Shown here: one piece after another, positions 1 through 26,365 of the stretch | Position numbering within the stretch: the stretch's first letter is position 1 | Layout of the letters: every line of letters begins with the position of its first letter | Source of the DNA: Candidatus Dadabacteria bacterium | GTDB taxonomy: Bacteria; Desulfobacterota_D; UBA1144; Nemesobacterales; Nemesobacteraceae | Reading direction: 5' to 3' | Length of the DNA: 64,000 bases | Assembly (NCBI GenBank): GCA_951812945.1 | Contig: CATOTB010000006.1 | Span: 77,335 to 141,334 of the forward strand | Made by a program: the position numbers and the translations under genes | Notes under the pieces: generated by a model | The model's database searches: none | Seen by the model: only the letters and a program-made list of their open reading frames with translations | Told to the model about the DNA's origin: nothing

Positions 1-330
1 CCCTACATTGCTGATCTTCCCGATATCGTTTTGCCGGAGAAAGAGCTTGTCTACACGAAAATGGAATCCCTGATCAGGCATTTCGTTCTGGTTTACAACG
101 GTTTCGAGACTCCTCCGGGGGAGATATACCACGCCGTGGAGAACCCCAAGGGAGAGCTTGGTTACTACATAGTAAGCGACGGTACGGGAAAACCCTACAG
201 GATGCGGGTTCGTGGGCCGTCGTTTGTGAACCTGCAGGCCCTTCCAGATATGGTAAAGGGGGGATTTGTCTCCGATGTCGTTGCTGCGATAGGCAGCATC
301 GACATAGTGCTCGGGGAAGTCGACAGGTAG
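1..330 (+). CDS. nuoD: NADH-quinone oxidoreductase subunit D, 3' partial (the gene begins upstream of the window)
   Basis: Reading frame is open from position 1. The C-terminus ...[12 protein letters not shown] matches the conserved NuoD/Nqo4 C-terminal end. Stop codon at 328-330. Confidence 0.8.
296..323 (+). repeat. Direct repeat copy 1: the 3' end of nuoD (gcatcgacatagtgctcggggaagtcga)
   Basis: 28-nt exact match to 1080-1107. Read directly from the sequence. Confidence 0.9.
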
Positions 331-404
331 GAGTGAGGAGAAAAGACCTGCTTCTTCCGTTTTCTTACATTCTTCCGAAGTGCCTTGACACGACATGACC
401 GGTC

Positions 405-656
405 ATGAATACTGGTCATATGACAACCATTAATGCATCTGATTTCAAGGCACGGTGCCTGGCCATCCTCGATCGCGTTCATGAGACCGGCGAACGGGTG
501 GTTATCCTGAAGCGTGGTAAGCCAGTTGCAGAGCTGTCACGTGTGGTCAGCGAGGGAAACCGGTATCCTCAGAGTGAACTGGAGGGGACGGTCATCATAG
601 CTGGCGATGTCATGGAACCGGTGTTTCCAGAGGAGCAGTGGGACAGCCTGAAGTGA
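405..656 (+). CDS. Type II antitoxin, Phd/YefM family
   Basis: 83 aa, ...TINASDFKARCLAILDRVHETGERVVILKRGKPVAEL..., a typical Phd/YefM N-terminus. Overlaps the downstream PIN-domain gene by ~19 nt. Confidence 0.7.
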   Translation: MNTGHMTTINASDFKARCLAILDRVHETGERVVILKRGKPVAELSRVVSEGNRYPQSELEGTVIIAGDVMEPVFPEEQWDSLK

Positions 657-1054
657 AGAATGTGTTGCTCGACACACATATCCTGCTGTGGTGGCATGGA
701 GACCGCCGTCGGCTGTCTCGGGATCAACAGGACGTTATTGCGTCTGCCGACGCAGACTCGCCGTTGCAGGTATCCGATATTTCGCTTTGGGAAGTGGCGA
801 CGCTGCACAGTCTGGGTCGTATTCGCCTGAAGATTCCCCTCCGGGAATGGTTGGAGAAAGCGGTTGCACCTCCGCTGGTGCGGCGACATGGCATCTCCCC
901 GGCGGTAGCGGCCGAGTTAGTGTCGTTGCCGGATTCCTTTCATCGCGATCCGGCAGACCGCATTCTCGTGGCGACCGCCCGTGTGCTCGGCGCGACGCTT
1001 CTGACTCAGGACCACAGAATCGTCGAAGCTGAACTGGTTGACACGCTGAGCTGA
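638..1054 (+). CDS. vapC: PIN-domain toxin, VapC family
   Basis: 138 aa with the conserved acidic PIN residues (LLDTHILLW ... DPADRILVATA ... LLTQD). Translationally coupled to the upstream antitoxin. GC-rich. Confidence 0.75.
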   Translation: MGQPEVKNVLLDTHILLWWHGDRRRLSRDQQDVIASADADSPLQVSDISLWEVATLHSLGRIRLKIPLREWLEKAVAPPLVRRHGISPAVAAELVSLPDSFHRDPADRILVATARVLGATLLTQDHRIVEAELVDTLS

Positions 1055-1079
1055 TATCGAGGTAAGCGGGTCGGCGGCG

Positions 1080-1107
1080 GCATCGACATAGTGCTCGGGG
1101 AAGTCGA
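1080..1107 (+). repeat. Direct repeat copy 2 of the nuoD 3' end. Stays in frame through a stop and encodes ...[12 protein letters not shown]
   Basis: Exact 28-nt copy of 296-323, followed by ...tcgctga. Lies immediately downstream of the Phd-VapC module. Confidence 0.9.
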
Positions 1108-1247
1108 TCGCTGATTAAATTAGGAAAAACTGCCGCAACCTTTGGGTTGTTTACGTCTCTCTCCGTTGGCCGCGTGCTCATTTGACGCAATCTCGGAACA
1201 CCGGCTACTCTTTACGCCAGCGATGAAACCTGATTGGGAGGTTCAGC

Positions 1248-2996
1248 TTGGCGTCAACCCCTACAAACGACCACATCCGCTACGAGCCGGATGAGAAGTG
1301 CACGCCGCTCTCGTCCTTCGTCGTCGGCATACAGGGCATCGTGCTCGTGCTACCGCTTGCGGTTTCGATAGTGGTTATCAATGTTCTGGCGACCGGCCAG
1401 GACGAAGCATACCTGACCTGGTCCGTATTCTCGGCGCTGATAATCGTCGCGATAGTCACCGCGCTGCAAGCCTCCAGGATAGGTCGATTTGGCGCGGGGC
1501 ATCTGGTCGTCATGGGAGTGACGCCCAACTACATCCCGCTGTCGGTGCTCGCCTTGGATGAGGGAGGGCCAGCGATGCTGGCCAGCCTGATGGTTGTGTC
1601 CGCGTTCTTTTTCTTTGCGATAGCGACAAGGCTTCCGCAACTGCGGCGCGTGATAACGCCGACTGTGTCAGGCACAGTTCTTATGCTGATAGCCGTGATG
1701 GTGCTGCCCATCTGTTTGGATCGATTCGGGGAAGTACCGGAGGGTGCGCCGACATCCGCTGGGCTGTGCGTAGCTTTGGTAACGCTTGTGGTATCCACGG
1801 CGCTGATGCTGCGCGCCCCGAGGCGCTGGCGTCCGTGGTCCATACTGATCGGATTTGTGTCCGGCTGCATGGTCGCTGCCCTGTTGGGAGTGTACGACCT
1901 GGAGCCACTGTACACAGCACCGTGGGTCGGCATTCCCCAAGTCGGTTTCCAGGGATTGGACCTTACACTGACTGCCGGATTCTGGGCGCTGCTGCCGATG
2001 TTCTTGATTGTCACTCTGGTGCAGGCGATCAAAGGCATTGGAGACAACGTGGTGATTCAGCGGGTGTCGCGGCGCAGACCGAGGACGACCGATTTCCGGC
2101 TGCTGCAAGGTTCGCTCTACTCAAATGGGGTGGGTGTTTTGCTGTCGGGTCTTGCCGGAACGCCTCCTGCATCGCCATATTCGTCATTCACGGCGTCGGT
2201 CGTGAACATGACGGGAGTTGCCGCCCGCAATGTGGGATACGTCATAGCGATCATACTTCTGGGACTGGCATTGCTGCCAAAGTTCACGGGCGCGCTGCTC
2301 ACCATACCCAGTCCGGTGATGGGGGCATTTCTCTTGGTTGCTGTGGGAATATTTTTTGTCGAGGGAATACAGACTATCGTGCGGGACGGACTTGACTTTC
2401 AAAAGACCGTTGTGGTAGGCGTGTCGTTCGCGCTTGGCGCCGGGCTCGAGCAACAAAACATTCTTGAGAACTTGCTGGTGCACCCGTGGGGCACACTGCT
2501 TGGCAACGGCATCACTGTGGGCGCGGCAACGGCGATTGCGCTCAACGCCTTCCTGAATGTGACCAGTCCGCGTTCCAGGAAGCTTGAGATTCGACTGGAC
2601 TTTTCCGACCTGCCACGAATTGATGCCTTCATGCGGGAAGTTGCCGCCGATATGGGCTGGAGCGAGGAGGCGACCCAGCGGCTGCGTTCGGCGGGCGAGG
2701 AGACGCTGTCGAGCCTGTTACAGCCGGACAGCGGATATCCCGCGGATGGTGAGACGGACAAGGCTCCGCGCCTGATCATAGCCGTGCGTCCCGACGGCAG
2801 AGCAGCGGAGATGGAATTCATCTCGACGCTTGAGGACGAGGAGAACTTGGAGGACCGTCTTGCGTATCTGAATGAAGAGGACGAAAGCGTGGATGAGAGG
2901 GAAATATCGTTCCGCCTGCTGCGTCATTATGCTTCATCGGTGCGCCACCGGAAATATCAGGGGATGGATGTCGTTGCGGTGCGGGTCCAAGCGTAA
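1248..2996 (+). CDS. NCS2/SulP-fold (APC superfamily) permease with a ~150-aa C-terminal cytoplasmic extension (STAS-like or other regulatory domain, unresolved)
   Basis: 582 aa. TTG start preceded by GGGAGG. The N-terminal ~430 aa is polytopic membrane protein with a G-I-Q-G...PNYIPLSV pattern reminiscent of xanthine/uracil (NCS2) permeases. The C-terminal tail is soluble and acidic. GC-rich, inside the island. Confidence 0.55.
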   Translation: MASTPTNDHIRYEPDEKCTPLSSFVVGIQGIVLVLPLAVSIVVINVLATGQDEAYLTWSVFSALIIVAIVTALQASRIGRFGAGHLVVMGVTPNYIPLSVLALDEGGPAMLASLMVVSAFFFFAIATRLPQLRRVITPTVSGTVLMLIAVMVLPICLDRFGEVPEGAPTSAGLCVALVTLVVSTALMLRAPRRWRPWSILIGFVSGCMVAALLGVYDLEPLYTAPWVGIPQVGFQGLDLTLTAGFWALLPMFLIVTLVQAIKGIGDNVVIQRVSRRRPRTTDFRLLQGSLYSNGVGVLLSGLAGTPPASPYSSFTASVVNMTGVAARNVGYVIAIILLGLALLPKFTGALLTIPSPVMGAFLLVAVGIFFVEGIQTIVRDGLDFQKTVVVGVSFALGAGLEQQNILENLLVHPWGTLLGNGITVGAATAIALNAFLNVTSPRSRKLEIRLDFSDLPRIDAFMREVAADMGWSEEATQRLRSAGEETLSSLLQPDSGYPADGETDKAPRLIIAVRPDGRAAEMEFISTLEDEENLEDRLAYLNEEDESVDEREISFRLLRHYASSVRHRKYQGMDVVAVRVQA

Positions 2997-3039
2997 CGAC
3001 GGCTTGGATTGGCGAGCCAGCGCAAGGGAAAGGTCGAGT

Positions 3040-3945
3040 TTACGTAGTGATAATCGGCTCGATGAACTCAAGCATGGACTTGACGCATTCCTCTGGCTTT
3101 TCCAAGAGAAGAAGGTGCGTAGCGTCAGGCAGGAAGTCGTAGTCTACGGAGGACATATCACTCAGGTCGAGTGTTGGCAGGTATGAGTATGGCAAGGTCG
3201 GGTCAGCCCCGATGACCTTTGTCGGGCAGAGGAGCGACTGAAAGTCCACGAGTACGGCAAAGGCGCTTGCGTACTCTATTATCTGCGCCTGGTACTCAGG
3301 AGGGCAACAAGGTTCATACCCCTCTCCATTCTCACGCTCACGCAGGGTTGTTCTTGCATAAAGATCGAATACCCCGGGCACCACATGCTGGAAGGCTGGA
3401 ATGTAAGGAAGAATGTCCGCAAGTTCTTGCATGGTTTGAAATCGACTCGTGCTTTGACGGATACCTTTGGCCATACGTTTTGCGATATCTTCATAATCCT
3501 TAAAGCTCCGGCCAGGCTTGCAGAGAGGCGGGTCGAACAGAACCCGCGCTGCAAAGTCGCTGCCTTTTTTGGGTGATAGCAGAGTCGCCAGAGCCGCAAT
3601 TGAGTGGAACATGCCTATTCTGGGCTTTGCTCCATAGTGGCGGTCGATAGCCTCAACAATGGTGTCGTTGTCCTGAACCAATGTTGGAAGGCTATGGTTT
3701 TGAAGATCGCCTACCGGATTCCATCCATGGTTTCTGAGATCGTAGATTATTAGGTCGAAATCATTGGTCAGGAGCGACCAGAACGGATAATACAGGTCGA
3801 CTGCGAGGCCGTTGCCGTGGCTCATAACGAGTCGCGGTCCTGACGGATTTCCATGTTGCCGCAGCGTAATGACGGTTTCGTCGTCCACGCGGACATCGTG
3901 GGTGGAAAGCGGCTCAGGTAACTCCCATACGATTTCTGTAGTCAC
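3040..3945 (-). CDS. Alpha/beta-hydrolase fold protein, possibly a product-release or tailoring hydrolase of the PKS cluster
   Basis: 301 aa. An HG oxyanion motif (MSHGNGL), an HGWNP motif, and a nucleophile-elbow-like GMFHSIAA with a non-canonical F in the small-residue position. Overlaps the upstream PPTase gene by 4 nt, suggesting translational coupling. Confidence 0.55.
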   Translation of the reverse strand: MTTEIVWELPEPLSTHDVRVDDETVITLRQHGNPSGPRLVMSHGNGLAVDLYYPFWSLLTNDFDLIIYDLRNHGWNPVGDLQNHSLPTLVQDNDTIVEAIDRHYGAKPRIGMFHSIAALATLLSPKKGSDFAARVLFDPPLCKPGRSFKDYEDIAKRMAKGIRQSTSRFQTMQELADILPYIPAFQHVVPGVFDLYARTTLRERENGEGYEPCCPPEYQAQIIEYASAFAVLVDFQSLLCPTKVIGADPTLPYSYLPTLDLSDMSSVDYDFLPDATHLLLLEKPEECVKSMLEFIEPIITT

Positions 3946-4715
3946 TGGTAAATTCCTCGTCTTTCTGACACGTTACAGTTCAGTTGCTGTAATGACTGGT
4001 CGCCCAATTGGGACGGGGGAAGCTCATGTGCGATGGCTGCTGAGAAATCCTCGTTGCCAATGTATTCGACGCGCCAGTGCACTTCCGGCAGATGTGGGAA
4101 GCGAAATATGCTTATTCTCTCCTGATGCAAGGCTTGTGGCACTTCGAACTGAGACACATCAAGGGTAAAACCTAGGCCAAGAGCCTTGACGAGGGCTTCC
4201 TTGATGGTCCAGAGTCTGAAGAACAGTTGAACCCTATCCGATCCACGTGCACATGCAAGGGCGGACTGTTCATGAGGACCAAACACGGCTTCGCTCAGTT
4301 CGTCAAAATCCCTTCGGGAGACGCGCTCCTCTACATCCACGCCCAGCCGTCCATGGGGAACAAGAGCTATCAAGCCATGCTTTCTGCTGTGACTGAGGTT
4401 GAAACTGATGGCTGCCGGTTCCCCGTCTACTAGCGCAAACGGCTTTCCATAGTCAGATGAGCCGAAGCTGAGGCGTTCATTGCTGCAACCGAGCTGGCGA
4501 CAGAGGATAGACCGAAGCGCAACACGACACAGAGCAAACCTGCGACGAGGACCTGGGAGCGGATATTGGCGACAGCGCGCCTGCTCTTCCTCATTCAGCC
4601 ATAATAAAGATGATGCCTCACGGCTGGCATTAGGCCTCAGGTCTACATGTATGATGGTAACGGGACCAGCTTTATGGAAGAAACTCCACAAGCACCTTGC
4701 AGCAGAAGTGGACAT
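3942..4715 (-). CDS. 4'-phosphopantetheinyl transferase, Sfp type
   Basis: 257 aa. The two Sfp signature motifs are present (LGVDVEE and WTIKEALVKALG). Sits between the ACP and hydrolase genes of the PKS operon. Confidence 0.8.
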   Translation of the reverse strand: MSTSAARCLWSFFHKAGPVTIIHVDLRPNASREASSLLWLNEEEQARCRQYPLPGPRRRFALCRVALRSILCRQLGCSNERLSFGSSDYGKPFALVDGEPAAISFNLSHSRKHGLIALVPHGRLGVDVEERVSRRDFDELSEAVFGPHEQSALACARGSDRVQLFFRLWTIKEALVKALGLGFTLDVSQFEVPQALHQERISIFRFPHLPEVHWRVEYIGNEDFSAAIAHELPPSQLGDQSLQQLNCNVSERRGIYQ

Positions 4716-4747
4716 CAGATGCCGTTTACCCCTAAAGGAGCGAGGGG

Positions 4748-4993
4748 TTAAGAAGCGTTGGCTTCCAGGTACGCTATCAAGTCTCCAATCGTCGGAATCT
4801 CCCCGGCCTTCTCGGGAAGGAGGGAGACATTGAACTCCTGCTCGATCACTTTGGCGAATGACACTGCGTCCATAGAGGAAACACCCAGGTCAGCAAGGCC
4901 CTTGCCCAGGTCCAGCAACTTGCCTATCGGTTGTCCATCTACCTCCAAGTTTTCGTCTGCAAGTTGTCTCAGCCGCTCTTCAGTTGATGCCAT
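4748..4993 (-). CDS. Discrete acyl carrier protein
   Basis: 81 aa, acidic four-helix-type sequence with DLGVSSMDAV (an LGxDSL-like phosphopantetheine attachment site). Lies 112 nt downstream of the PKS stop on the same strand. Confidence 0.7.
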   Translation of the reverse strand: MASTEERLRQLADENLEVDGQPIGKLLDLGKGLADLGVSSMDAVSFAKVIEQEFNVSLLPEKAGEIPTIGDLIAYLEANAS

Positions 4994-5105
4994 AATATGC
5001 AGTCCTCCTTTTAAGAATTTAAGATATTAGAGCACAATGGTACAATATACAGGTGCTTGGGTCAATCGATTTTTCTCTAGTTTCCTCCGTGACGAGGCAC
5101 CCCAA

Positions 5106-8100
5106 TTACACCCAGTGACGCCTGCGCTGGAACGGATAGGTCGGCAGCGAAATGCGGCGGCGCGACTCCCCGGCGAACATGCCCTCAAAGGAAAGTGCCA
5201 GTCCCGCCTCGTATGCCCCTGCAACCGCTTCCGCAAAACCAGTACTGTCCTCCTCTGAATCCTCGTCGGATGGTCGCATCAGGCTCGCAAGCACGAATGG
5301 TGAGGCGGCAGCTTCCTCTCCGTCCGACGAGTCCGGCCACTGAAGGTTCACCTGCGGTCCCAATACCGCTCCGGGGCCAATCTCCACCACCGTATCCACT
5401 CCCAGCTCGGCAAGCGTGGAAACACCTGTGCCAAACGCCTCAGTTTCGCACGCCTGCGTACGCCAGTACGCCACGTCGAGTGGATTGTCCGCATCCACAA
5501 CTCGCCCCGTAACGCCGCTCACCAGAGTCAGGGATGGAGGTGAGACCGCACTCTCTGCAAATGCCACTTCCAGGCCGTTTAGAGATTGGTTCGGGTCCGC
5601 TCCCGGCAGCGCCGCCATCAGCGTGCCACGAGTCAAGGCAAGGCGCAATCCGTCCTCCAAGGTGAAGACTCCCGCAGCCCACGCCGCGGCAATCTCACCC
5701 GTTCCGTGCCCCAGTGCGACGTTCGGGCGGATCCCAACGCTCGCCCAAAGCGCCGTCAGCGCGCACTCCAATGCATAGAGAGCCGGCTGCGCCCAAGCTG
5801 CATCATTCAAATCGCCCGTTGCTTCGGCGCGCCCGAACATCACATCGAGTAGCGATGCTCCTTTCTCTGCGCGCACCACGGCGTCACAGTGGTCCAAAAC
5901 AGCGCGCACGACCGGCTCGCTGTCGTACAGCGCCTCGCCCATACCAACCCACTGGCTGCCCTCGCCTGTGTATAAGAATGCCACCCTTGTTACAGGCTGT
6001 GGAGCCGGTTTATCAGGCGTAGCGACAGTCTCCGCGAGTTTCGTCAGCCCTGCACGCAGAGACTGCGTATCCCCGAACACTACGGCGGCACGATGGTCAA
6101 AATGGCTGCGTCCGACACTCGCCGTCCACGCTATGTCAGCAAGTGCAGGCGCTTTTGGAGACGACCCGGCAATGTGCTCGTCGAGCCACGACAGGTATTG
6201 TCCCGCCATGTCGCGCAGGGCGCCGTCCGACTTGCCCGATAGCGGCAGGAAACGCACCGTGCGCTCCGTTAGTCCGTCTGTAGCCAGCGGCAGATTCGCA
6301 ACCGGCTCCGGCAGGGAAACGGGCACCGGCAGTGCGGCACCCCTGAGCGACTGCACTCCAGCACTTGCGCTGTCATCCTCTGTCGCGATTCCGTAGCCTT
6401 CCACCACCATATGTGCGTTTGCGCCTGACATGCTGAACGCGCTTACTGCCGCGCGTGGCGGCTTGTCAGAATGGGGTGGCCAGTCGGTTTTTTCAGAAGT
6501 TACCCGCACGGGCAGTTGGTCCCAGTTGATTTGTGGATTCGGCTCCTTGAAATGCAGATGTTTCGGAATGACACCCTGCTTCATCGCCAGCACAGCCTTT
6601 ATCAGGCCGGCAACGCCCGCCGCCGTCTCCAGATGTCCGATATTTGACTTTACGGTGCCTATCAGCAGCGGACAGTCGGCGTCGCGCCCTCTGCCGTACA
6701 CCGAGCTGGCTGCGTGTACTTCAATTGCGTCGCCCAATTGGGAACCTGACGCGTGCGCTTCGAGATAGTCAACATCCGTTCCGGTGAGACCCGCCCGAAC
6801 AAGCGCCGCCTCCATAACACGTTCCTGTGCTGGACCGTTCGGGACGGTCAATCCCGCGCTTGTCCCGTTCTGGTTAACAGCAGAACCCTTGATGACGCCC
6901 CATATTCGATCTCCGTCAACCTCCGCCTCGCTCAGCCGTTTTAAAACGAGCATTCCGCAGCCCTCGCCGCGTACATGACCGTCCGCAGAAGCATCAAAGG
7001 GGTGACACTGCCCGCTCGGCGACAGCATCCCCACATCCAGCATGAATCTGGAAACATCGTGCGACAGAGCCGCATGCACGCCTCCGGCGAGAGCCAGGTC
7101 CACCTCGCCCCGCTGTAGCCCACCAACGGCTTGATGCGCCGCAGCCAATGCTGAGGCGCAGGCCATATCGATGGCCATCGCCGGGCCCTCCAGACCCAGT
7201 GCGGACGCGACCCGCCCGGTGGTGATGCTGGCCGTTGTGCCGAGGTGAATGCCAGTCTTACCGCTGGCCTCAATCACATGTCGGTATTCGCTGCCGGCGA
7301 CTCCGGCATACACCGCGGTGCGGCTGCCCCGCAGGCTGTCGGGAGCGATTCCAGCGTCTTCGACAGCCTCCCAACTCGTCTCCAACATCATTCTTTGCTG
7401 TGGGTCCATCATCCGCGCTTCTATCGGCGCAATGTGAAAGAATCGTGAGTCGAACCACTCGATATTCTCAACAAACGCACCGTGCAGGTGTGTGGTGCCC
7501 TCGGAGTTCGAGTCTCCAAAGGCGTCCCTACGCGGATCGCCAGCCTGGCGTCCGTCGGTCACTGCGTCAGTGCCCGATTCCAGAAGATGCCAGTATTCCG
7601 AAAGGTTTTTCGCGCTTGGGAAGCGGCATGCCATGCCGACTATCGCTATGTCGTCATCCTCAGTAGCGACGAGTGGGCGCGGCGGGGGTGCGGCTGTCTC
7701 GGGTGTTGGAGCCGTCCCATCGTCCCCATCCAGTTGACCGAGTTCGTCCGCCAGATAATGCGCTAAGGTTGTGACGTCGGGATAGTCGAAGACAGCTGTG
7801 TTGGAGACGACATACTCGCCCGCGAATGCGCGGTTGAGCCGGTTTCTCAGTTCTACTGCCATCAATGAGTCCATACCCAGATCGAAGAACCCCACCGTTG
7901 GCGTCGGCGCCGACGGCAGCCGCAGAACTGCCTGTACTTCCCCCTGCAGGAATGACACCAGCATGCCTTCGCGTTCCGCCACAGTCGTCTTCCGCACTCT
8001 GGACATCAGGTCGTCCGCCTGAGCGGGCGAGTCGGCGTCGGCCTCGGGACTGGTGGACAGCAGGTCTTCTAGCAGGGAGGGACGGTCTTCGACAGCCTCC

Positions 8101-11100
8101 TCAAAAACTGCCCAGTCCATGGACATCACCACGGAATTCGTTACGTCCTGGCGCACAAGTCTGTCAAACGCCCTGAGACCTTGCTGCGGTGTAAACCAGC
8201 GGCCACCGAGCGCCGCTCGTTGCCGTTCAATCCGGTCTCGTTGTTCCGCCGCTTCGCCGATCTCTGACCACGCCCCCCAGGCAATGGCCTGTCCCGGAAG
8301 CCCCACCGCCCGCCGGTGGGCGGCGAGCTGGTCCAGGAACGCATTGGCTGCGGCGTGGTTTGCCTGGCCCGGATTGCCCATGACGCCAACTCGGCTCGAA
8401 AAGAGGATGAAGAGCTCCAGATCGCGGTCCGCCGTCGCACGGTGCAGGTGCCAAGCGCCCAGCACTTTCGGCCACAGCACCTGCTCGAACCTCTCCCAAC
8501 TCTGGTTCGACAGTGAAGCGTCCGACAACACTCCCACGCTGTGAATCACTCCGCCGAGCGGCGGAAGTTCCCGATCCATCCGCGCCAGCATGTCGTCCAC
8601 AGCTGAGGCATCCGTCACATCTGCCAGTTCCACCCTCACCGTGGACCCGCGTTTACGCAACGAGTCGATCTCTTTTTCAACCTCGGGGTCTGGTGGTCGT
8701 CGTCCATTCAGCACGATCGCCCCCGCACCGTGATCCGCTAACCAGCCGGCCACGGCGCACCCGATACCGCCCAGGCCGCCGGTCACCAAGTAGGTCCGGT
8801 CCTGCCGCAAACCACCCCCCCCCGCAAGCGGTGGTGTCGTCACGACGATCTTCCCGAGGTGCCGGGCCGATCGCATGAATCTCAACGCAGCTCCCGCTTC
8901 GGCCAGGGGCCACCTGCTGTGGATAAGCGGTTTCAGTTCTCCCGCCGTAAGGCGCTCCATCACGTCCCGGAGAACCCTTCCGACCCAAGCCGGCTCAGTC
9001 TTCTTCAAAACATCCAACTCCAGGATGGAGTAGGCAACGTCGGGACGAACTGCCGCCATCTCCTCCTCGCTCAGAATGTCCCGCCTGGCCAATTCCACAA
9101 ACCGGCCACCCTGTGCTAGGCATGACAGACTCGCCTCGATGAATCCCTCTCCCGTCAGGCTGTTGAGCACCACGTCGACTCCTGCGCCGTCCGTGGCCTC
9201 GAGGATCTCTTCCCCGAACTTTGTCGTGCGGCTATCGAACACATGCTCCACACCGATGGAACGGAGATAGGGCTGCTTCGATGCACTCGCCGTGGTATAC
9301 ACCTCGATGCCTACAGCACGCGCCAACTGGATGGCCGCGAGTCCCACACCTCCAGCACCTGCGTGAATCAGCACCCGTTCGCCAGCGTTCAACCCTGAGA
9401 GCTCATACGAGAATGCGGCTGAGACGAACACATTCGGCACCGTGGCGAGACCCGTCACCGAGATTCCCGATGGCGCGGGCGCCACCAATTCCTCCCGTAT
9501 GATCATTTCGGCCGCGAACGCACCACCGAACCCCAATCCAACCACATGATCGCCGGCCGAGACGGTTGACACCTCGGAACCCACATCGAGCACGTGGCCA
9601 CACATCTCCTTGCCTAAGTTCCCCTCTTCAATGAAGCCAAGCGAACGAAATACATCCCAGAAATTCATTCCGGCAGCCTCGACCGCGACGCGGACTTCTT
9701 TCGGCTCCAGGGAACGCTCCGGCAGCGGCTTGACGTAAGGCTTGTCGAATATGCCGTCCGGGTCCGGAGCCAGCACCCAGGCCGACTGCTGCGGCAATGT
9801 TAACCGCTCCGTGTTGGTCCCGGCCCGGACCAGGCGGGCTACCATACGTCGGCCGTAGCGATGTGCGATGTGATTCTCGTGATCGGGATACAGCAGTTCG
9901 TCCGGGAGTTCAGGCGACTGCGTTTTTGAGGGGTCCAGGTCAATCATCCTCGGCTTTAGATGCGCCGCTTCGCGGGACACCACCTTCCCGAAACCCCATA
10001 GCGTCGCGCCGGCAAGTTCCCCGCCAAGCTCCTTCTCCAGCACCTGCGCGCCCCGCGTAAGAAACCACACTCCGTTCTCGGGCACCGCATCGGAGTCAAC
10101 CAGCCCCTGCGTCAACGCCAGTGCGCTCGCCACCGCTCGCCTCGTGTCCTTCGCCATCTCTTCGTTTGTCGCATTCAGGCCGTGGCCGCCCAGCGCCACG
10201 AGGTGCACGACTCCTTTCAGAGGCGCATCCCCGGGTAGGCACTCCAACAGCGATTGCCACGACTCGCGCCGCTCCATGTCCACCGTTGACCGGACAATGC
10301 CGGACCCGTCCACTTCTGAATTCCCGTTCTCCGGGAGTTGATGGTCCGCCAGCACGACTGTCTGGTTGCGTGCGGCCAGATCTGCTGCCAGTTCTTCGGC
10401 CACGCCAGCGCTGTCCGCCGCCAGAACCCAGATGCCCGGTCTTTCGGTCACCTCAGCCGGACCCCGCGCCACGATCACACCCTTATCCGGCATCTCGGCC
10501 GAGTCGGACTCTTCCAACCCCAGCACTTCTATTTCCCCGAAACCCACGTCAGTGAGTACGCGACGCCACACAGCAGGATCCACCAAGGCGTGTTGCGGTC
10601 GGTAGGCATCGGCGAACCGCCACCAGCCGTCCAACGGCCCGAAAGTCAAGTCCATCCAACCCATACCCCTCAGGTTCTCGAGCGCGACCAGCTGTCCTGA
10701 TGGCGCGAGAAGCCGCCGGCAGTGCGCAAGCGTCTCATTTAGGTATTGCGTGGCGTGCAACACATTGGATGCAATCACCAGGTCGTAACCGTGGAAATCG
10801 AATCCCTGCTCCACCGGATCCTTCTCGATATCCAGCATGCGGTAATCTATCGACGCTTCATCGCCTCCGAAGCGCGCCTCTGCTTCCGCAAAGAAGCCCG
10901 CCGAGATATCCGTGTACATGTAGTCGAACCGTCCTTCCGGGAGTTCCGGCAGGATGGCCGCGGTCGCCGACCCTGTACCCGCCCCGACTTCGATCACCCT
11001 GAGGCGTCGGCCGTCGGGCAACCCCGCCACAAGAGTCTGAACCGTTTCTCTCAGTATCCGGTTCGCCGCACGCGCCACCGGAGCTTTTCGATACAGATCG

Positions 11101-14100
11101 CCCGGGGTCGGGTCTCCGCTGCTAAACAGGATTGTCAACGGGTCCGCTCGGCCCAGCAGCACGTCTGCCAGGGCGTTACCAGACCGTCGAAAAAGCCCGA
11201 TCTCGGTCAAGCCGTGGGGATATAGCTCAGCTATTCGGGTAGCGAATTCTTCTGTGTCAAGCGGCATTTCATCCGGCAAGGGATCCCCGGATCCGATCCT
11301 CACGACGAAGTTGCCGTCCACCTCCTCCAACACTCCGGACTTGGCCAGCATCTCGAGCATCCGGCGGAACAAGCGCTTATGCTCCTCCACGACATTCAAG
11401 CGCCGCCGCAAGTCCTCTGAATCCACGGCCGCGCCCCCCTCGCGTTCCCACCCCAGCTTCTTCAAGGTCTCTAGCGCGCAGGATCGAGACCACCTCTCCA
11501 GGTCAGTCAGGAGGGCGCTTCTGTCCTTGGGCGTGACTCCTTCGTCGGCCAAATAATCTGAGAGCAACCCCGAGCGCGTTGCAACCGTTGCCTGAGACGC
11601 GAGGAAATCTGCGGACAGCATTCCGGGCGTGAGAGCCCTTTCGCGCCACACAACCTCATACAGCAGTTCATTCACCCCTTCGACTGCGGAGAGCAGCGCC
11701 GCCCGCGTCGCGCGTTTCACCATGTATCCGCTCAACCCGCCAAGCAGAACTCCATTGGGATCGTAGATGCGCAATTCTCCGTTCCAGACCTCGGGCGGCT
11801 CGCCCTGTTCCACTTCCGTTCCTTGGGAAGCCTCACTCATGCGCACGTGGCAGAGCAAGCGATCCGGCAGCCGATCCGCCAGCCACAGTCGCTCCCAGCC
11901 AAATGGTAGATAGGTGGTTTCCTCTTCTGCCCCGCCTGGATTGCGCGCTGCGGCCATAACCTGAAAGCAACCGTCCAGCAGGAGCGGATGAACGTCCAGC
12001 CCGTTGCGGCCGAGAGCTTCAGGGAAAGAAATCTCGCCTAACGCCTCGCCCGGCCGGGACCAGACCCTCCCGAGCGTACGGAAGAACGGGCCGAGATTAA
12101 TCCCCGTACTGGCCCGGGCACGGTAGTAGGCTGCCACGTCTATTGGCGACAGAGGGGCCTTGAGGCTTTCGAGATCGATCCGCCTACCGGCTTCCGGCAT
12201 CGGGGCGTCCGGCGATACGCGGCCTTCCACGTGTAACGTCCAGCCCTCTCCACTCCCCTTGCTGAATATCTGGACACGACGCGAATTTGCCCGCTCGGAA
12301 GAATCAAGCACAACCTGCACCTTTCGGCCCTCGTCACCGGTACCGTCCTCGGAACCCTCCTCCGGGAAAATCAGCGCGTTGTGCAGCTGCATGTCCTCCA
12401 CAACCACCGCGCCGCTCTCTTCTGTAAGGGATACCGATGCCGCCATGGCCCCATAGAGCGCGCCCGGAGCTATAACCCGGCCGAACACCCGGTGGTCGCT
12501 CAACCACTCCGGATCCGACCGGAACACTTCTGTCTCGAATGTGACCTCGCCGCTGGCGGATTCGTGCCGGACCCCCAGCAAGGGGTGGCCGACGCCCGAG
12601 CGTTGTTTTCTATTTGAATCAAGCCAATGGCGTTCGCGTTGGAATGGATAGCTTGGCAACGAGATGCGACGGCGCGCCTCCCCCGCGAAGAGCCCTTCAA
12701 AACGAATCGGGAGCCCCGCCTGATACGCTTCCGCGACCGCCCGCGTGAAATCGGCGCCATCCGCGGACGCTCGGGATTCACCAGACGGTGGGCGCAGGCT
12801 TGACAGCACCGTGGGTGGCGGTGTCTGTACCGAGTCCGGCCAAGCCGCGCCCGTCATCGTGGCCAGGATCGGTCTCGGCCCTATCTCCAACACCAAGTCC
12901 ACCCCGAGTTCCGCCAACGTCCGGACACCGCGGGCGAACGCCACCTTCTCGCGGGCATGCTGCCTCCAGTAGGCTCCGTCCAGCGCTTGGCCAGGCTCCA
13001 GCGCTTGGCCAGTCAGGTTGCTGACCACGGTGAGGGAGGGTGGTTCGATCGCCACACTATCCAAGGAAGCTTCCAGCATGTCCAGAGCTGGCTCCACCAA
13101 GGCGCTGTGGAACGCGCGGGCTGTGTTCAGCCGTCTTACCCGGACTCCTTCCGATTCGAAGCGCTTCGAGATGGTTTCAATCTCTGCAACCGGGCCGCTC
13201 ACCACTTGGTGGCCGCCGTTGTCCGCCGAGATGCTCAGCCCAGCACTGGCAGATGATTCGTTCAGCTCCTCGACCGTTGACGCCACTCGTGCCGGAGTGG
13301 CAAAAACCGCTGCCATTGCGCCCGGTTCGGTTTCCGACAGCAGGGTGCCCCGCGCCGCGGCAAACCGCATTCCATCCTCCATGCTGAACACTCCCGCTGC
13401 CTGCGCCGCCGCCAGTTCCCCGACACTGTGCCCCAACACCACGCTGGGACGAACCCCTACACTCGACCAGAGCGCCGTGAGCGCGCACTCGAGGGCGTAG
13501 AGGGTCGGCTGCTCCCACGCCGTATCGCTCAGATTGCCTTCGCCGCACCCGAACATCACGTCAAGCAACGAGGCGCCTCTTTCAGCCCGAAACACCTCCT
13601 CACAGCGGTCGAGAACCGCCCGCGCCACCGGCTCACGTTCGTAGAGCGCCTTTCCCATGCCGGCCCATTGGCTTCCTTGCCCGGTATAAACAAACGCCAC
13701 TTTCATCGCTGTTTGCGGCCCTGGACTCTCGCCCACATTCCCCAGCGCTTTCAGCCCCTCCCGTAGCGACCCGGTATCCCGAAACACCACGCCTGCACGA
13801 TGATCAAAATGGCTCCTCCCTACGCCTGCAGTCCACGCCATGTCCGAGAGTAAGGGTTCTAAAGAGGTGCTTTGGGAAGCAAGATCCTCTGGATGCTCGT
13901 CCAGCCACAAGAGGTAACGCTCCGCAAGTTCCCGGAGTGCGGTCACCGATTTGCCGGACAGCGGCAGCAACCGGGTCTCGCGCTTCCTTAACCCTTGCTC
14001 AGGCAGCGGCAAACTCTCCGCGGCCTTCGGCAAAGAGACTGTCACTGTCTGGGCTGAGCCAACAAGCTGACGCTTCCCGTAGGGCAATTCCCCTGGGGCA

Positions 14101-15479
14101 ATGTATTCTTCCACCACTATGTGGGCGTTCGTCCCGGATATCCCGAAGGAGTTTACTCCTGCCAGTCGCGCCCGTCCGCCACGCTGAGGTAAGTCCATCA
14201 TGGACGAAGTAACCTTTAAAGGCAGTTGGTCCCAATCGAGGCTAGGGTTGGGAACCTGGAAATGCAGGTGCTTCGGAATCACGCCGCGCTGCATCACCAG
14301 CACTGCCTTGATCAGACCAGCGATTCCGGCAGCCGACTCGAGGTGGCCGATATTGGTCTTTACGGAACCGATCAAAAGAGGATGATCGGCTTTGCGTCCT
14401 CTGCCGTAGACAGCGGAGACGGCCTCGATCTCAATCGGGTCGCCTACAGCTGTTCCAGTTCCGTGCGCCTCCAGGTAATCCACATCCGAAGCGGGAACTC
14501 CGGCCTGCGACAGCGCCGCTTCCATCACCTGTTCCAATGCGGGGGTGTGCGGTACGGTCAGTCCGGTGCCGGGTCCGCCGTTATTCACCGCCGAGCCTCG
14601 GATCACCCCCCAGATCCGATCGCCATCCTCCTCGGCCTCGCTCAGCCGTTTCAGGATAACGACGCCGCAACCTTCACCGCGCACGTAACCGTTCGCAGAC
14701 GCATCGAACGTCTTGCACTGCCCGTCCGGAGACAGCATCATCGCATCCGCACGGAGTTCGAAAATGCGACTGTTCAGGATGGCCTGCACACCGCCTGCAA
14801 TGGCCAGATCCGCCTTGCCCTGCTGCAGGTCTGCCACCGCGTCGTGGACCGACACCATGGACGACGCGCACGCGGCGTCCACTGCCTTTGCTGGTCCCAT
14901 GAGGCCCAGCACGAAAGAGACCCGTCCGCTGGTACCGTTGAGGTTTGTGCCGCTCAGAGCATAAAGACATGAGGCGGCCTCGGCAGGTTTCCTTGACTCC
15001 ACTACCAGCATCCTGTATTCGTCGTTGCTGATCCCGGTGTATACCCCGGTGCGGCTGCCCTTCAGCCGATCCGGATCCATACCCGCATCCTCAAGAGCCT
15101 CCCAAGTGGTTTCCAGCATCATCCGCTGCTGTGGATCCAGCAACTGGGCCTCGACCGGAGAAATACGAAAGAACCCCGCGTCGAACTGCTCGATTCCGTC
15201 GACATAGCCACAGAAACGACAGGCCTTGCTCGGAATCTGTCCATCGGGGAAAAGCTCGTCCATACGCCCGACGCCGGAACCTGGGACGCCCTCCGTCACC
15301 ACGTTCTGGCCGGCTTCGAGCAGGCGCCAAAAGGCCGGTATACTCGGTGCGCCGGGGAACCGGCACCCCATGCCCACGATTGCTATCGGTGGACCGAGTC
15401 CAGATTTTTCCTGTCTCTGAATTTCAGAGTGGGGCGATGATTCCCCAGAGGAATCGCAAGACTTGTTTGATTCCGTCAT
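5106..15479 (-). CDS. Type I polyketide synthase with domains KS-AT-DH-cMT-ER-KR-ACP-KS-AT(degenerate)
   Basis: 3457 aa, ATG preceded by GGGAGGGAG. KS1: DAACASS Cys, EAHGTGT, NIGHLE. AT1: GHSVGE plus RAFHS (malonyl-type). DH: HRVFGRVIAPG plus LLDGCFQ. cMT: VIEVGAGTGS SAM motif. ER: LIHAGAGGVGLAAIQLA. KR: TGGLGGIG. ACP: FFDLGMDSL. KS2: DMACAS, EAHASGS, NIGHLE. AT2: GHGTGE, no Ser. Ends ...YPFQRRRHWV. Confidence 0.95.
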   Translation of the reverse strand: MTESNKSCDSSGESSPHSEIQRQEKSGLGPPIAIVGMGCRFPGAPSIPAFWRLLEAGQNVVTEGVPGSGVGRMDELFPDGQIPSKACRFCGYVDGIEQFDAGFFRISPVEAQLLDPQQRMMLETTWEALEDAGMDPDRLKGSRTGVYTGISNDEYRMLVVESRKPAEAASCLYALSGTNLNGTSGRVSFVLGLMGPAKAVDAACASSMVSVHDAVADLQQGKADLAIAGGVQAILNSRIFELRADAMMLSPDGQCKTFDASANGYVRGEGCGVVILKRLSEAEEDGDRIWGVIRGSAVNNGGPGTGLTVPHTPALEQVMEAALSQAGVPASDVDYLEAHGTGTAVGDPIEIEAVSAVYGRGRKADHPLLIGSVKTNIGHLESAAGIAGLIKAVLVMQRGVIPKHLHFQVPNPSLDWDQLPLKVTSSMMDLPQRGGRARLAGVNSFGISGTNAHIVVEEYIAPGELPYGKRQLVGSAQTVTVSLPKAAESLPLPEQGLRKRETRLLPLSGKSVTALRELAERYLLWLDEHPEDLASQSTSLEPLLSDMAWTAGVGRSHFDHRAGVVFRDTGSLREGLKALGNVGESPGPQTAMKVAFVYTGQGSQWAGMGKALYEREPVARAVLDRCEEVFRAERGASLLDVMFGCGEGNLSDTAWEQPTLYALECALTALWSSVGVRPSVVLGHSVGELAAAQAAGVFSMEDGMRFAAARGTLLSETEPGAMAAVFATPARVASTVEELNESSASAGLSISADNGGHQVVSGPVAEIETISKRFESEGVRVRRLNTARAFHSALVEPALDMLEASLDSVAIEPPSLTVVSNLTGQALEPGQALDGAYWRQHAREKVAFARGVRTLAELGVDLVLEIGPRPILATMTGAAWPDSVQTPPPTVLSSLRPPSGESRASADGADFTRAVAEAYQAGLPIRFEGLFAGEARRRISLPSYPFQRERHWLDSNRKQRSGVGHPLLGVRHESASGEVTFETEVFRSDPEWLSDHRVFGRVIAPGALYGAMAASVSLTEESGAVVVEDMQLHNALIFPEEGSEDGTGDEGRKVQVVLDSSERANSRRVQIFSKGSGEGWTLHVEGRVSPDAPMPEAGRRIDLESLKAPLSPIDVAAYYRARASTGINLGPFFRTLGRVWSRPGEALGEISFPEALGRNGLDVHPLLLDGCFQVMAAARNPGGAEEETTYLPFGWERLWLADRLPDRLLCHVRMSEASQGTEVEQGEPPEVWNGELRIYDPNGVLLGGLSGYMVKRATRAALLSAVEGVNELLYEVVWRERALTPGMLSADFLASQATVATRSGLLSDYLADEGVTPKDRSALLTDLERWSRSCALETLKKLGWEREGGAAVDSEDLRRRLNVVEEHKRLFRRMLEMLAKSGVLEEVDGNFVVRIGSGDPLPDEMPLDTEEFATRIAELYPHGLTEIGLFRRSGNALADVLLGRADPLTILFSSGDPTPGDLYRKAPVARAANRILRETVQTLVAGLPDGRRLRVIEVGAGTGSATAAILPELPEGRFDYMYTDISAGFFAEAEARFGGDEASIDYRMLDIEKDPVEQGFDFHGYDLVIASNVLHATQYLNETLAHCRRLLAPSGQLVALENLRGMGWMDLTFGPLDGWWRFADAYRPQHALVDPAVWRRVLTDVGFGEIEVLGLEESDSAEMPDKGVIVARGPAEVTERPGIWVLAADSAGVAEELAADLAARNQTVVLADHQLPENGNSEVDGSGIVRSTVDMERRESWQSLLECLPGDAPLKGVVHLVALGGHGLNATNEEMAKDTRRAVASALALTQGLVDSDAVPENGVWFLTRGAQVLEKELGGELAGATLWGFGKVVSREAAHLKPRMIDLDPSKTQSPELPDELLYPDHENHIAHRYGRRMVARLVRAGTNTERLTLPQQSAWVLAPDPDGIFDKPYVKPLPERSLEPKEVRVAVEAAGMNFWDVFRSLGFIEEGNLGKEMCGHVLDVGSEVSTVSAGDHVVGLGFGGAFAAEMIIREELVAPAPSGISVTGLATVPNVFVSAAFSYELSGLNAGERVLIHAGAGGVGLAAIQLARAVGIEVYTTASASKQPYLRSIGVEHVFDSRTTKFGEEILEATDGAGVDVVLNSLTGEGFIEASLSCLAQGGRFVELARRDILSEEEMAAVRPDVAYSILELDVLKKTEPAWVGRVLRDVMERLTAGELKPLIHSRWPLAEAGAALRFMRSARHLGKIVVTTPPLAGGGGLRQDRTYLVTGGLGGIGCAVAGWLADHGAGAIVLNGRRPPDPEVEKEIDSLRKRGSTVRVELADVTDASAVDDMLARMDRELPPLGGVIHSVGVLSDASLSNQSWERFEQVLWPKVLGAWHLHRATADRDLELFILFSSRVGVMGNPGQANHAAANAFLDQLAAHRRAVGLPGQAIAWGAWSEIGEAAEQRDRIERQRAALGGRWFTPQQGLRAFDRLVRQDVTNSVVMSMDWAVFEEAVEDRPSLLEDLLSTSPEADADSPAQADDLMSRVRKTTVAEREGMLVSFLQGEVQAVLRLPSAPTPTVGFFDLGMDSLMAVELRNRLNRAFAGEYVVSNTAVFDYPDVTTLAHYLADELGQLDGDDGTAPTPETAAPPPRPLVATEDDDIAIVGMACRFPSAKNLSEYWHLLESGTDAVTDGRQAGDPRRDAFGDSNSEGTTHLHGAFVENIEWFDSRFFHIAPIEARMMDPQQRMMLETSWEAVEDAGIAPDSLRGSRTAVYAGVAGSEYRHVIEASGKTGIHLGTTASITTGRVASALGLEGPAMAIDMACASALAAAHQAVGGLQRGEVDLALAGGVHAALSHDVSRFMLDVGMLSPSGQCHPFDASADGHVRGEGCGMLVLKRLSEAEVDGDRIWGVIKGSAVNQNGTSAGLTVPNGPAQERVMEAALVRAGLTGTDVDYLEAHASGSQLGDAIEVHAASSVYGRGRDADCPLLIGTVKSNIGHLETAAGVAGLIKAVLAMKQGVIPKHLHFKEPNPQINWDQLPVRVTSEKTDWPPHSDKPPRAAVSAFSMSGANAHMVVEGYGIATEDDSASAGVQSLRGAALPVPVSLPEPVANLPLATDGLTERTVRFLPLSGKSDGALRDMAGQYLSWLDEHIAGSSPKAPALADIAWTASVGRSHFDHRAAVVFGDTQSLRAGLTKLAETVATPDKPAPQPVTRVAFLYTGEGSQWVGMGEALYDSEPVVRAVLDHCDAVVRAEKGASLLDVMFGRAEATGDLNDAAWAQPALYALECALTALWASVGIRPNVALGHGTGEIAAAWAAGVFTLEDGLRLALTRGTLMAALPGADPNQSLNGLEVAFAESAVSPPSLTLVSGVTGRVVDADNPLDVAYWRTQACETEAFGTGVSTLAELGVDTVVEIGPGAVLGPQVNLQWPDSSDGEEAAASPFVLASLMRPSDEDSEEDSTGFAEAVAGAYEAGLALSFEGMFAGESRRRISLPTYPFQRRRHWV
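5310..5990 (-). other. PKS domain AT2, degenerate and predicted inactive
   Basis: aa ~3164-3390. The active-site motif reads GHGTGE (nt 5697-5711) instead of GHSxG. The ~70 aa carrying the specificity motif are absent relative to AT1. Confidence 0.75.
6390..7655 (-). other. PKS domain KS2 (second ketosynthase)
   Basis: aa ~2609-3030. Cys2774 in DMACAS, His2909 and His2949 present. Confidence 0.8.
7740..7982 (-). other. PKS domain ACP (integrated)
   Basis: aa ~2500-2580. GMDSL with Ser2538. Confidence 0.8.
8220..8798 (-). other. PKS domain KR (ketoreductase) with His in place of the catalytic Tyr
   Basis: aa ~2228-2420. TGGLGGIG Rossmann motif. SSRVGVMGNPGQANHAAANAF has H2375 (nt 8355-8357) where the canonical motif is GQxNYAAAN. 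Confidence 0.7.
8835..9782 (-). other. PKS domain ER (enoylreductase)
   Basis: aa ~1900-2215. NADPH-binding LIHAGAGGVGLAAIQLA. Confidence 0.8.
10530..11342 (-). other. PKS domain cMT (C-methyltransferase)
   Basis: aa ~1380-1650. ExGxGxG SAM-binding motif VIEVGAGTGS at aa 1496-1505. Confidence 0.75.
11730..12602 (-). other. PKS domain DH (dehydratase)
   Basis: aa ~960-1250. HxxxGxxxxP with His996, and DxxxQ with D1169. Confidence 0.75.
12810..13700 (-). other. PKS domain AT1 (acyltransferase, malonyl-type signature)
   Basis: aa ~594-890. GHSVG Ser685 and an RAFHS specificity motif. Confidence 0.8.
14106..15389 (-). other. PKS domain KS1 (ketosynthase)
   Basis: aa ~31-458. Catalytic Cys204 is encoded at 14868-14870, and both catalytic His motifs are present. 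Confidence 0.85.
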
Positions 15480-15565
15480 CGAAATCTCCCTCCCAAGATT
15501 ATGAGCTGATGGTTCTGTCTGTTCCCTTAATCTGAACTGTTTCCGTCTTAAAAAACGGTTTTCAG

Positions 15566-15595
15566 TTCACCACTCGAACTATGAAATTCACCACT
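15566..15595. promoter_or_regulatory. Tandem direct repeat TTCACCACT (15566-15574 and 15587-15595) in the PKS upstream region, a candidate operator
   Basis: Two identical 9-mers spaced 21 nt apart, ~90-115 nt upstream of the PKS start codon in a low-GC intergenic region. Confidence 0.2.
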
Positions 15596-15764
15596 GATTT
15601 TGATAATTCTCTTTCTGAAGAGTTTAGCATGGGGATGGACAGGGAACAAAGCTCTTCTTCGCTCGGGCCACGACTATCTCACGCTAAATACAGGTGGCAG
15701 TTTGGCATTTGTATGCTTTCTGTCTCTGTCCGCGAGGTTATCACAATCAGATGAATGCCGGGTC

Positions 15765-16424
15765 TCAGGGAAAAGTCACTGTTCCTGCTCCCTCCGGTTT
15801 CTTGAACGCAAAAAACGAATCAGGAATGCCGAGGTTAACTTCCGCAGTGCCCAGTTTTATGACCGTAGTGTTTCCGAAGATGTCGCCAATTATGATTTCT
15901 CTCAGCATATAGGTCTTGGGGTCGACTGCTATAGTCACCTGCTTTGACTGCTCCTGGTTTTTCTGTTTCAGGTCAAGGAGGACATTCCCCCGCCCGTCGG
16001 TGCTTCCGACGCCCGGGCGGACATCGAAAAGACGGTCAAGATCCTCCAGTATGGAAATAACGGTATAGGAACCGAGAGAATCTGCCCAGACGCTGTCAAA
16101 TTCCGTTTCGGCGACCTGGTTTTCCTGGCTGTCAAAATACCAGATCTTCTTTCCGTCAGAAACTATCGTGTCTTTCCATGGCTCTTCGTACTGCCACTTC
16201 ATCATCCCGGGTTTTTTGAACCACACCTTGCCCGAGGATGAGATTTTCTCCCCAAGGTCTTTTATCCGGGTTTCCTGTGTGAATGGCGATTTAAGGTCGT
16301 TTATGGAAGCGTATTTTTTCTGGATACCACTTACAATAGCAGCTGTATCCTGTGTTCTCGCCGGGTGGGTGGTAAAGAGAATGGATACGGTGAGAAGCAC
16401 CGCCGCAAGCGCGATTTTTCTCAA
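15765..16424 (-). CDS. lolA: Outer-membrane lipoprotein carrier protein LolA
   Basis: 219 aa. N-terminal signal peptide, and the LolA-like ...KSPFTQETRIKDLGEKISSSGKVWFKKPGMMKWQYEEP... Confidence 0.7.
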   Translation of the reverse strand: MRKIALAAVLLTVSILFTTHPARTQDTAAIVSGIQKKYASINDLKSPFTQETRIKDLGEKISSSGKVWFKKPGMMKWQYEEPWKDTIVSDGKKIWYFDSQENQVAETEFDSVWADSLGSYTVISILEDLDRLFDVRPGVGSTDGRGNVLLDLKQKNQEQSKQVTIAVDPKTYMLREIIIGDIFGNTTVIKLGTAEVNLGIPDSFFAFKKPEGAGTVTFP

Positions 16425-18619: not shown

Positions 18620-18679
18620 TTCTTAAATTCTGAAATAAAAACCCTCAGCGTCCGAGCTAGAGGGAAAATTCCCCGCCAT

Positions 18680-20137: not shown

Positions 20138-20197
20138 AGCTTGATCTCTCCCGGCGTGTACGGCCTTTTCCTGGTTTCAGCTGTTTTCTTCATCACT

Positions 20198-26332: not shown

Positions 26333-26365
26333 TGATACCCACCGTGTTCTTCGCGGAACCGGGTT

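Follow-up and report, generated by a model that had tools for sequence, protein, structure and literature searches.

Two versions of the nuoD gene end flank a toxin-antitoxin cassette in Dadabacteria: a probable scar of host recombination

In a genome of Candidatus Dadabacteria bacterium (assembly GCA_951812945.1, contig CATOTB010000006.1, forward-strand positions 77,335 to 141,334; these 64,000 nt are called the window below), a predicted toxin-antitoxin (TA) operon of the Phd/YefM-VapC type lies directly behind nuoD, the gene for subunit D of NADH dehydrogenase, and is bracketed by a direct repeat of the nuoD 3′ end. The original prediction, made from the sequence alone, read this as the signature of an element that inserts into the 3′ end of a protein-coding gene and carries a replacement gene end, as tRNA-targeting integrative elements do. 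In its architecture the locus matches a classical type of insertion, in which a protein-coding gene is given a new 3′ end and a truncated copy of the old one is left behind, the cargo being an ordinary, highly mobile Phd/VapC cassette. With moderate confidence, the two repeat copies are interpreted as two versions of the nuoD end set side by side by host recombination, that is, as the scar of a crossover in the conserved gene end combined with one illegitimate junction, and not as the attachment (att) sites of a working mobile element.

The repeated 28-mer (GCATCGACATAGTGCTCGGGGAAGTCGA) was found as two exact matches, at 296-323 and 1080-1107, when both strands of the window were searched with up to three mismatches allowed, and no 28-mer match arose in any of 100 dinucleotide-preserving shuffles, bearing out the exact repeat and both of its positions. 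With one mismatch the repeat grows to 32 nt (292-323 against 1076-1107). In L040, a relative without the cassette (sequences compared with the window carry L numbers), a single 33-nt stretch pairs with both copies, 292-324 and 1076-1108, and judged against relatives the duplicated length is 33 nt. Copy 1 had been taken for the real end of nuoD, and the translation agrees, as does the Pfam Complex1_49kDa profile (PF00346, E=4e-42), which was matched up to its last position. Copy 2 lies just past the vapC stop, is 5′-truncated and has no start codon; as had been noticed, it keeps the reading frame through its own TGA, and translation confirmed this. Its frame is also that of vapC and begins directly past the vapC stop codon, a point absent from the original prediction.

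The region downstream of nuoD was compared in a graded series of sponge-symbiont Dadabacteria drawn from NuoD homologues. In L004, L005/L006, L007 and L043, nuoABCD is followed directly by the convergent lolA, ftsK and further genes, whose window counterparts lie at 15765-21618; since lolA stands directly after nuoABCD in these genomes, the window from about 325 to 15765 is extra DNA. In L024-L034 and L040, a single nuoD end is followed by a spacer and then by a polyketide synthase (PKS) island, with no TA genes. NuoD of L024-L034 is 97% identical to the L001 query, and L040 DNA is about 94% identical to the window. The nuoD end of these cassette-free relatives reads GAAGTTGAC CGC TGA ttaaa(t/c)tag... 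and is colinear with window 1076-1203, a segment that shows 87.5% identity to L007. Copy 2 and the spacer downstream of it therefore correspond to the gene end used by cassette-free relatives; the C AGG TAG tail, the spacer at 331-381 and the TA operon are additional DNA. That gene end and its spacer survive in the window as a 5′-truncated, presumably unexpressed relic (1076-1203). Among the sampled relatives the locus forms a series from empty site to PKS island to PKS island plus TA operon.

The two copies part sharply at the end of the 28-mer. After 0/28 mismatches within it, 5/7 of the following bases differ (C AGG TAG vs T CGC TGA), among them a base of the Asp codon (GAC vs GAT). Despite these differences both tails encode Asp-Arg-stop. 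Because unrelated DNA would give Asp-Arg-stop with a chance of only about 0.2% (calculated as 1/2 x 6/64 x 3/64), the two tails are taken to be genuine nuoD ends of differing allelic type. In the sister clades L005 and L043, nuoD ordinarily ends in GAC AGG TAG, and lolA follows directly. A variant of GS(I/L)DIVLGE(V/I)DR forms the NuoD C-terminus in 120/120 of the closest proteins; since the Gly-Gly read from the relic was seen in 0/120, the G at 1079 is attributed to the junction or to a later change. No match was found for the 51-nt spacer between the tail in use and the cassette, and its reading as a diverged native spacer was rejected, the similarity being no better than in shuffled controls. 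A relic with an AGG TAG tail was sought at the right end of the PKS island, beside lolA, and none was found. Two smaller features of cassette-free relatives were also recorded. L024, L025 and L032 carry an extra 75-nt stretch between nuoD and the permease gene, about 30 nt past the nuoD stop, which is absent in the window, L007 and L040; and 36 nt unique to L007 were rejected as an island-internal piece, no match having been found.

Table 1. Coordinates of features at the nuoD locus, in the PKS island and around the pgpA relic (window positions).
Feature	Position	Strand	Basis or comparison
nuoD 3′ part, NADH dehydrogenase subunit D, functional copy, ends GAC AGG TAG	1-330	+	PF00346; full-length orthologues in L001, L007, L024
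Repeat copy 1, exact 28-mer (292-324 duplicated relative to cassette-free relatives)	296-323	+	comparison of window and L040
nuoD tail in use (C AGG TAG) and 51-nt spacer (331-381)	324-381	+	missing in cassette-free, present in all cassette-bearing relatives
Left edge of conserved TA cassette: promoter-like TTGACA (385-390), 17 nt, AATACT (408-413), overlapping palindromic sequence	382-419	+	homology start at 382-384 in other genomes; promoter and inverted-repeat scans
Phd/YefM-family antitoxin gene, alternative start 405	420-656	+	PF02604, E=1.2e-10; dN/dS 0.03-0.11 among relatives
VapC (PIN-domain) toxin gene, GTG start	653-1054	+	PF01850, E=1.6e-12; dN/dS 0-0.18
Short cassette tail and non-homologous junction (tatcgaggtaagcgggtcggc), GGC-rich at contact with relic	1055-1075	+	common to window, L002, L041, L042
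Repeat copy 2, relic of a GA(C/T) CGC TGA-type nuoD end, in vapC frame	1076-1114	+	colinear with single functional nuoD end of L007, L024, L025, L032, L040
Spacer that follows nuoD in cassette-free relatives	1115-1203	+	86.5% identity to L007 7228-7316; homologous to L024, L040
PKS island, about 14.5 kb	1204-15765	.	absent from L004-L007, L043
Permease, xanthine/uracil-family, with C-terminal extension	1248-2996	+	
Alpha/beta hydrolase	3040-3945	-	
Phosphopantetheinyl transferase (PPTase)	3942-4715	-	
Acyl carrier protein (ACP)	4748-4993	-	
PKS, 3457 aa, two-module with methyltransferase domain	5106-15479	-	
lolA, convergent, directly after nuoD in relatives without both insertions	15765-16424	-	Pfam LolA; junction alignment
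pgpA relic region	24666-27077		

The inserted operon is predicted from gene order and the PF02604 and PF01850 matches to be a type II TA pair. The antitoxin stop and the vapC GTG start share 4 nt (GTGA), and positions 385-413 look like a promoter. The VapC translation shows the motifs LLDT, WE, DPADR and TQD, which we take to carry the acidic PIN active-site residues. Across five lineages the ratio of non-synonymous to synonymous divergence (dN/dS) of the TA genes is 0-0.18, with synonymous divergence (dS) up to 0.7, pointing to purifying selection and a maintained module. No transposase was found at the cassette and no terminal inverted repeats at its ends.

The same cassette (382 to about 1060) recurs in unrelated contexts at 77-82% nucleotide identity; the homology always starts at 382-384, where the -35 box lies, and ends at 1054-1068, shortly after the vapC stop. 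It stands after an HU gene in L008-L013 and L036 and between desaturase and halogenase genes in L014-L023; L035 and L037 have it beside IS110-family transposases and L038 near a tyrosine integrase. VapC homologues number in the thousands, many of them 80-89% identical and on contigs assigned to other taxa (for example Rhodospirillaceae and Boseongicola sponge bins). An identical VapC protein occupies four contexts of one sample (L035-L038, L008; ERZ25070917 and others), after HU, beside IS110 (twice) and near the tyrosine integrase, and same-sample copies carry variable 70-120 nt pieces of the 3′ region of a former neighbour, the tail of the HU gene. In L008 the HU open reading frame (ORF) extends to 142 aa, running into the cassette promoter. 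No nuoD-like or other notable direct repeats flank the cassette copies in five other contexts. These distributions show that the operon circulates widely among sponge-associated bacteria. An exact look-up of the window PPTase and Phd proteins in the contig index returned no record. Chromosomal Phd/YefM-VapC islets, which move between genomes as cassettes that run from promoter to stop, are like this one in several ways: the antitoxin and PIN-toxin genes overlap and have a promoter and palindrome of their own, distant taxa contain copies with 77-89% identity, some of them beside insertion sequence (IS) or integrase genes, and selection is purifying. The nuoD locus differs in its unusually legible scar, since the insertion fell in the last codons of a gene for an essential complex, and the gene end had to be replaced.

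Six cassette-bearing sequences (the window, L001, L002, L041 and L042/L039) have the same junctions, and the insertion therefore had a single origin. The fate of copy 2 varies among them. In L001, the equivalent of window 1061-1205 is gone (145 nt), that is, the entire relic and spacer. From copy 2 of L002, 9 nt are missing, the Arg and stop codons among them; since a change of ATA to ATC is present in copy 1 of this genome and ATA is retained in copy 2, the copies have not been homogenised there. In L042 only the first 14 nt of copy 2 are left, the rest being overwritten by a 1.2-kb segment (984-2206). This starts with two internal nuoD fragments (gene positions ~716-818 and ~903-953), which match the gene at 88-92% identity. 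Some 1 kb of unknown DNA follows, in which a 129-aa ORF without Pfam match lies, and the spacer then resumes at the point equivalent to window 1135. Over 1321 nt the Logan contig L039 matches L042 exactly. L001, L002 and L042/L039 all have intact TA genes despite the lost or broken copy 2. Given the low dN/dS and the dS of the TA genes and the broken copy 2 in relatives, the insertion is old, the module is maintained and copy 2 is dispensable, a functionless relic that is being lost. Neither the 21-nt cassette tail nor the L042 filler could be sustained as decayed nuoD, as would follow from a longer duplication trimmed at a 'gcat' microhomology, the similarity not being significant; a longer original relic is possible. 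Two truncated sequences were also seen: the L041 metagenome contig begins a single base ahead of the 28-mer, as would fit a break in assembly where strains with and without the cassette co-occur, and the L003 stretch ends right after copy 1, probably at the limit of the 8-kb stretch and not at a contig end.

Under the favoured reading, host recombination would have joined two foreign or allelic segments downstream of nuoD. The first junction would lie within the highly conserved gene end, where homology of the tails stops sharply at 323/324; the second would be illegitimate, at 1075-1080, in a GGC-rich stretch. Such a pair was found: a homologous junction at 292-323/324 and a non-homologous one at 1075-1080, where the relic meets an unrelated GGC-rich tail, as expected of an insertion-duplication. 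Homology-facilitated illegitimate recombination and Campbell-type insertion-duplication have been shown experimentally in naturally transformable bacteria, for example Acinetobacter and Streptococcus pneumoniae. The nuoD locus resembles these events in having one homologous junction and one non-homologous junction in GC-rich microhomology, no mobile-element machinery, and fragments of the anchor gene left as scars. It differs in that the event is deduced from natural genomes, and in that the classical events usually delete recipient DNA and do not duplicate it. Most probably, the mechanism was host-mediated insertion-duplication or homology-facilitated illegitimate recombination.

Two orders of events account for the locus equally well. 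In the first, a segment consisting of a nuoD end, AGG TAG, the spacer and the TA operon would enter a genome that already held the PKS island, and a single crossover of the circularised fragment would duplicate the gene end. In the second, a TA-bearing genome with the ancestral AGG TAG tail would gain a fragment made up of the last 33 nt of nuoD, CGC TGA, the spacer and the PKS island, anchored by homology on the lolA/ftsK side and joined illegitimately at its left end behind vapC. In either order the TA module would penalise recombinants that lose it. The first order explains why the island is present in every TA-bearing genome, but needs a crossover within about 30 nt. The second is the more conventional event with one-sided homology; the L042 insertion, which also starts with nuoD fragments, resembles it. 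Possible donors of the relic exist in the PKS-island genomes (L024-L034, L040), and the relic may have arrived as the left flank of the neighbouring island. No divergent donor tract was found in the nuoD 3′ part of the cassette-bearing genomes, where identity is 93-97% up to the tail. In L042 the nuoD 3′ region is L040-like (97.8% identical) and carries the AGG TAG tail, which means that recombination has stopped at the tail boundary more than once. Phylogenetic ordering of the events failed, the lineages being recombination mosaics.

Several observations weigh against this reading of the locus. A donor with nuoD (AGG TAG), the 51-nt spacer and the TA operon and no relic was not found, nor was a TA-bearing genome without the PKS island found among the relatives, which also counts against the second order. 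A single crossover over only ~30 nt is inefficient, and the sampled AGG TAG lineages differ from the window core at 2-4 positions. In addition, a second gene-end relic in the window, of pgpA, shares with that of nuoD an arrangement in which the 3′ end of the upstream gene lies downstream of the cargo, a polarity that integrase-mediated insertion also gives, and a larger integrase-bearing element could have shrunk to the TA genes before the sampled lineages split.

The pgpA 3′ end (...GIVMDDVLAGVYGNLCLQAFVLLSG*) at 24992-25121 is repeated 1.2 kb downstream, at 26198-26332, with 82-84% nucleotide identity, and the relic is in frame to its own stop (...GIVMDDLLAGVYANLCLQVLVRLY*). The 1.08 kb of cargo between the copies includes a 223-aa ORF on the minus strand without Pfam match; after the relic come a second TA pair, of PIN/MazE type (26366-27077, minus strand), and then cinA. 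Either C-terminal type serves as a functional PgpA end in relatives.

A site-specific integrative element (prophage, island or cis-mobilisable element) could have targeted the nuoD 3′ end and brought its own nuoD end, everything but the TA genes and two att cores having been deleted later. We consider this possible, though unlikely. The repeats have the geometry of attL and attR sites, the replacement end is in frame, relatives show a single-copy empty site, and the pgpA duplication has the same polarity within the same window. TA modules are typical last survivors of decayed elements, and the identical VapC copies near the tyrosine integrase (L038) and the IS110 transposases (L035, L037) would suit such an origin. 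Against it, no recombinase gene was found between nuoD and lolA in the window, in line with the original prediction, which saw none left, or in any cassette-bearing genome, and the same holds for the PKS-island relatives. The cores also lie only 58 nt and 21 nt from the TA operon, and the copy that would be attR is not kept in relatives. A circular or attP form would read ggtaagcgggtcggcggcg-28-mer-caggtaggagtgagg, and precise excision through the repeats would join nuoD directly to tcgctgattaaattagg; the attP-like permuted form (vapC tail-28-mer-CAGGTAGGAGTG) was not found in the collections scanned, and no second element with the core was found there or in the same chromosomes.

The 28-mer is not a generic repeat, the outcome that would have counted against the original prediction. 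Outside the window its only occurrences were at nuoD ends of this clade, across 185,579 species genomes and the Joint Genome Institute (JGI) metagenomes; in the one-genome-per-species scan only three records carried it, all of them metagenome-assembled genomes (MAGs) of Dadabacteria or 'Thermodesulfobacteriota'. Exact-match scans such as these would miss diverged cores. No copy of the core or the cassette was found in viral contigs, GenBank phages or PLSDB plasmids. One part of the original prediction therefore stands, namely an insertion at the very end of nuoD, at a site that is single-copy in L024-L034 and L040 and with a tail in use that differs from theirs. The likeness to site-specific, tRNA-targeting islands does not: no recombinase is present, no attP-like form was found, no other element shares the core, the cassette occurs elsewhere without nuoD-like repeats, and copy 2 is decaying.

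The closest precedent for an integrative element of this kind is the insertion of e14 and phage 21 in Escherichia coli icd, in which the prophage supplies an alternative 3′ end and a ~163-bp pseudo-icd′ fragment stands at the far end (PMC6379469). The nuoD locus is alike in that a conserved metabolic gene has received an insertion at its 3′ end, the insert brings a gene end that is synonymous or nearly so, and the original end is kept downstream as a 5′-truncated direct repeat, relatives being single-copy. In contrast, it has no integrase or excisionase, its cargo is only 0.75 kb and its repeat is ~33 nt instead of ~160 nt; there is no sign of excision or of repeated use of the site, and the far-end copy is decaying in relatives. 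Membership in the site-specific integrative elements fails on recombinase and site reuse, whereas the flanking repeats and the replacement gene end fit. Xer-dependent modules (pdif, IMEX) are similar in being small, sometimes with TA genes, between 28-nt sites and without a recombinase of their own. Here, however, the 28-mer is nuoD coding sequence that forms direct repeats on a chromosome and occurs as a site nowhere else, and by inspection it has no 11-6-11 imperfectly palindromic arms, only a short TCGAC/GTCGAC motif recurring at the outer ends. Neither transposase nor terminal inverted repeats, as expected of a transposon or IS, accompany the duplication of ~33 nt. Nothing relevant came from scanning the window, L041 and L042 with Rfam and for tRNAs, and a literature search returned no paper linking TA cassettes to such a scar.

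The nuoD and pgpA relics together might suggest a general, targeted mobility of islets in sponge-symbiont Dadabacteria, in which small cargo such as TA cassettes would spread recombinase-free with a short 3′ end of a conserved gene, recombine in that end, regenerate the gene and leave the old end as a direct repeat, toxin addiction blocking repeat-mediated deletion. We regard this generalisation as improbable.

A simple in situ insertion of the cassette with a target-site duplication of ~33 nt, AGG TAG having stood at the edge of the insert by chance and been kept by selection for a working NuoD, is very unlikely. It would account for an insert flanked exactly by direct repeats, and the C-terminal VDR/IDR is invariant in NuoD, so that only restoring insertions would survive. 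It needs, however, a coincidence of about 0.2-0.4% per event, and the Asp codon (GAC vs GAT) places the start of the new DNA inside a nuoD-like codon, while GAC AGG TAG is itself a natural Dadabacterial nuoD end. There is also neither a transposase nor a pair of terminal inverted repeats, and target-site duplications of ~30 nt are not typical of known transposases.

That copy 2 is functional and maintained by selection, as a regulatory site, as an att site kept for excision or as a read-through extension of VapC, is hardly credible: the relic does stand in the vapC frame immediately past the TGA stop, and its core is 28/28 identical in the window, L041 and L002 despite a synonymous divergence of 0.09-0.24 between the TA genes of these lineages, but it is deleted in L001, has lost its stop in L002 and is replaced after 14 nt in L042/L039, all with intact TA genes, and the neighbouring non-coding DNA and the first part of the permease gene are just as well conserved between the window and L002, which fits a recombination block that the two shared recently. 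If the vapC TGA were read through, the relic frame (1052-1114) would add 19 residues to the toxin; with the relic lost in relatives, the shared frame is probably a coincidence.

The PKS island next to the relic is present in L024-L034 and L040 and absent in L007, whose spacer is 98.9% identical to that of L040; we presume that it resembles the 'sup' PKS clusters of sponge symbionts. In L002 the permease gene is interrupted by an AT-rich insertion with unrelated ORFs (from ~3420 downwards, minus strand), so the island is being disrupted there. Elsewhere in the window, two adjacent minus-strand ORFs at 47045-48479 (216 and 252 aa) are tandem paralogues with ~41% amino-acid identity by tblastx.

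Taken together, these comparisons give no evidence for an active site-specific mobile element at nuoD, which is best read as carrying a decaying scar of recombination, of a known kind; this leaves the current understanding of mobile elements unchanged. The locus is a clean natural record of foreign DNA piling up behind a conserved gene in uncultured sponge symbionts, in which one step is preserved as a dated fossil, the displaced gene end. A repeat that looks like a pair of att sites can arise with no integrase present, and such repeats decay once formed, a caution for the automated prediction of islands and att sites. The spread of the TA cassette across sponge-associated phyla, and its place at the edge of a PKS island, may interest those who work on the genome stability of symbionts.

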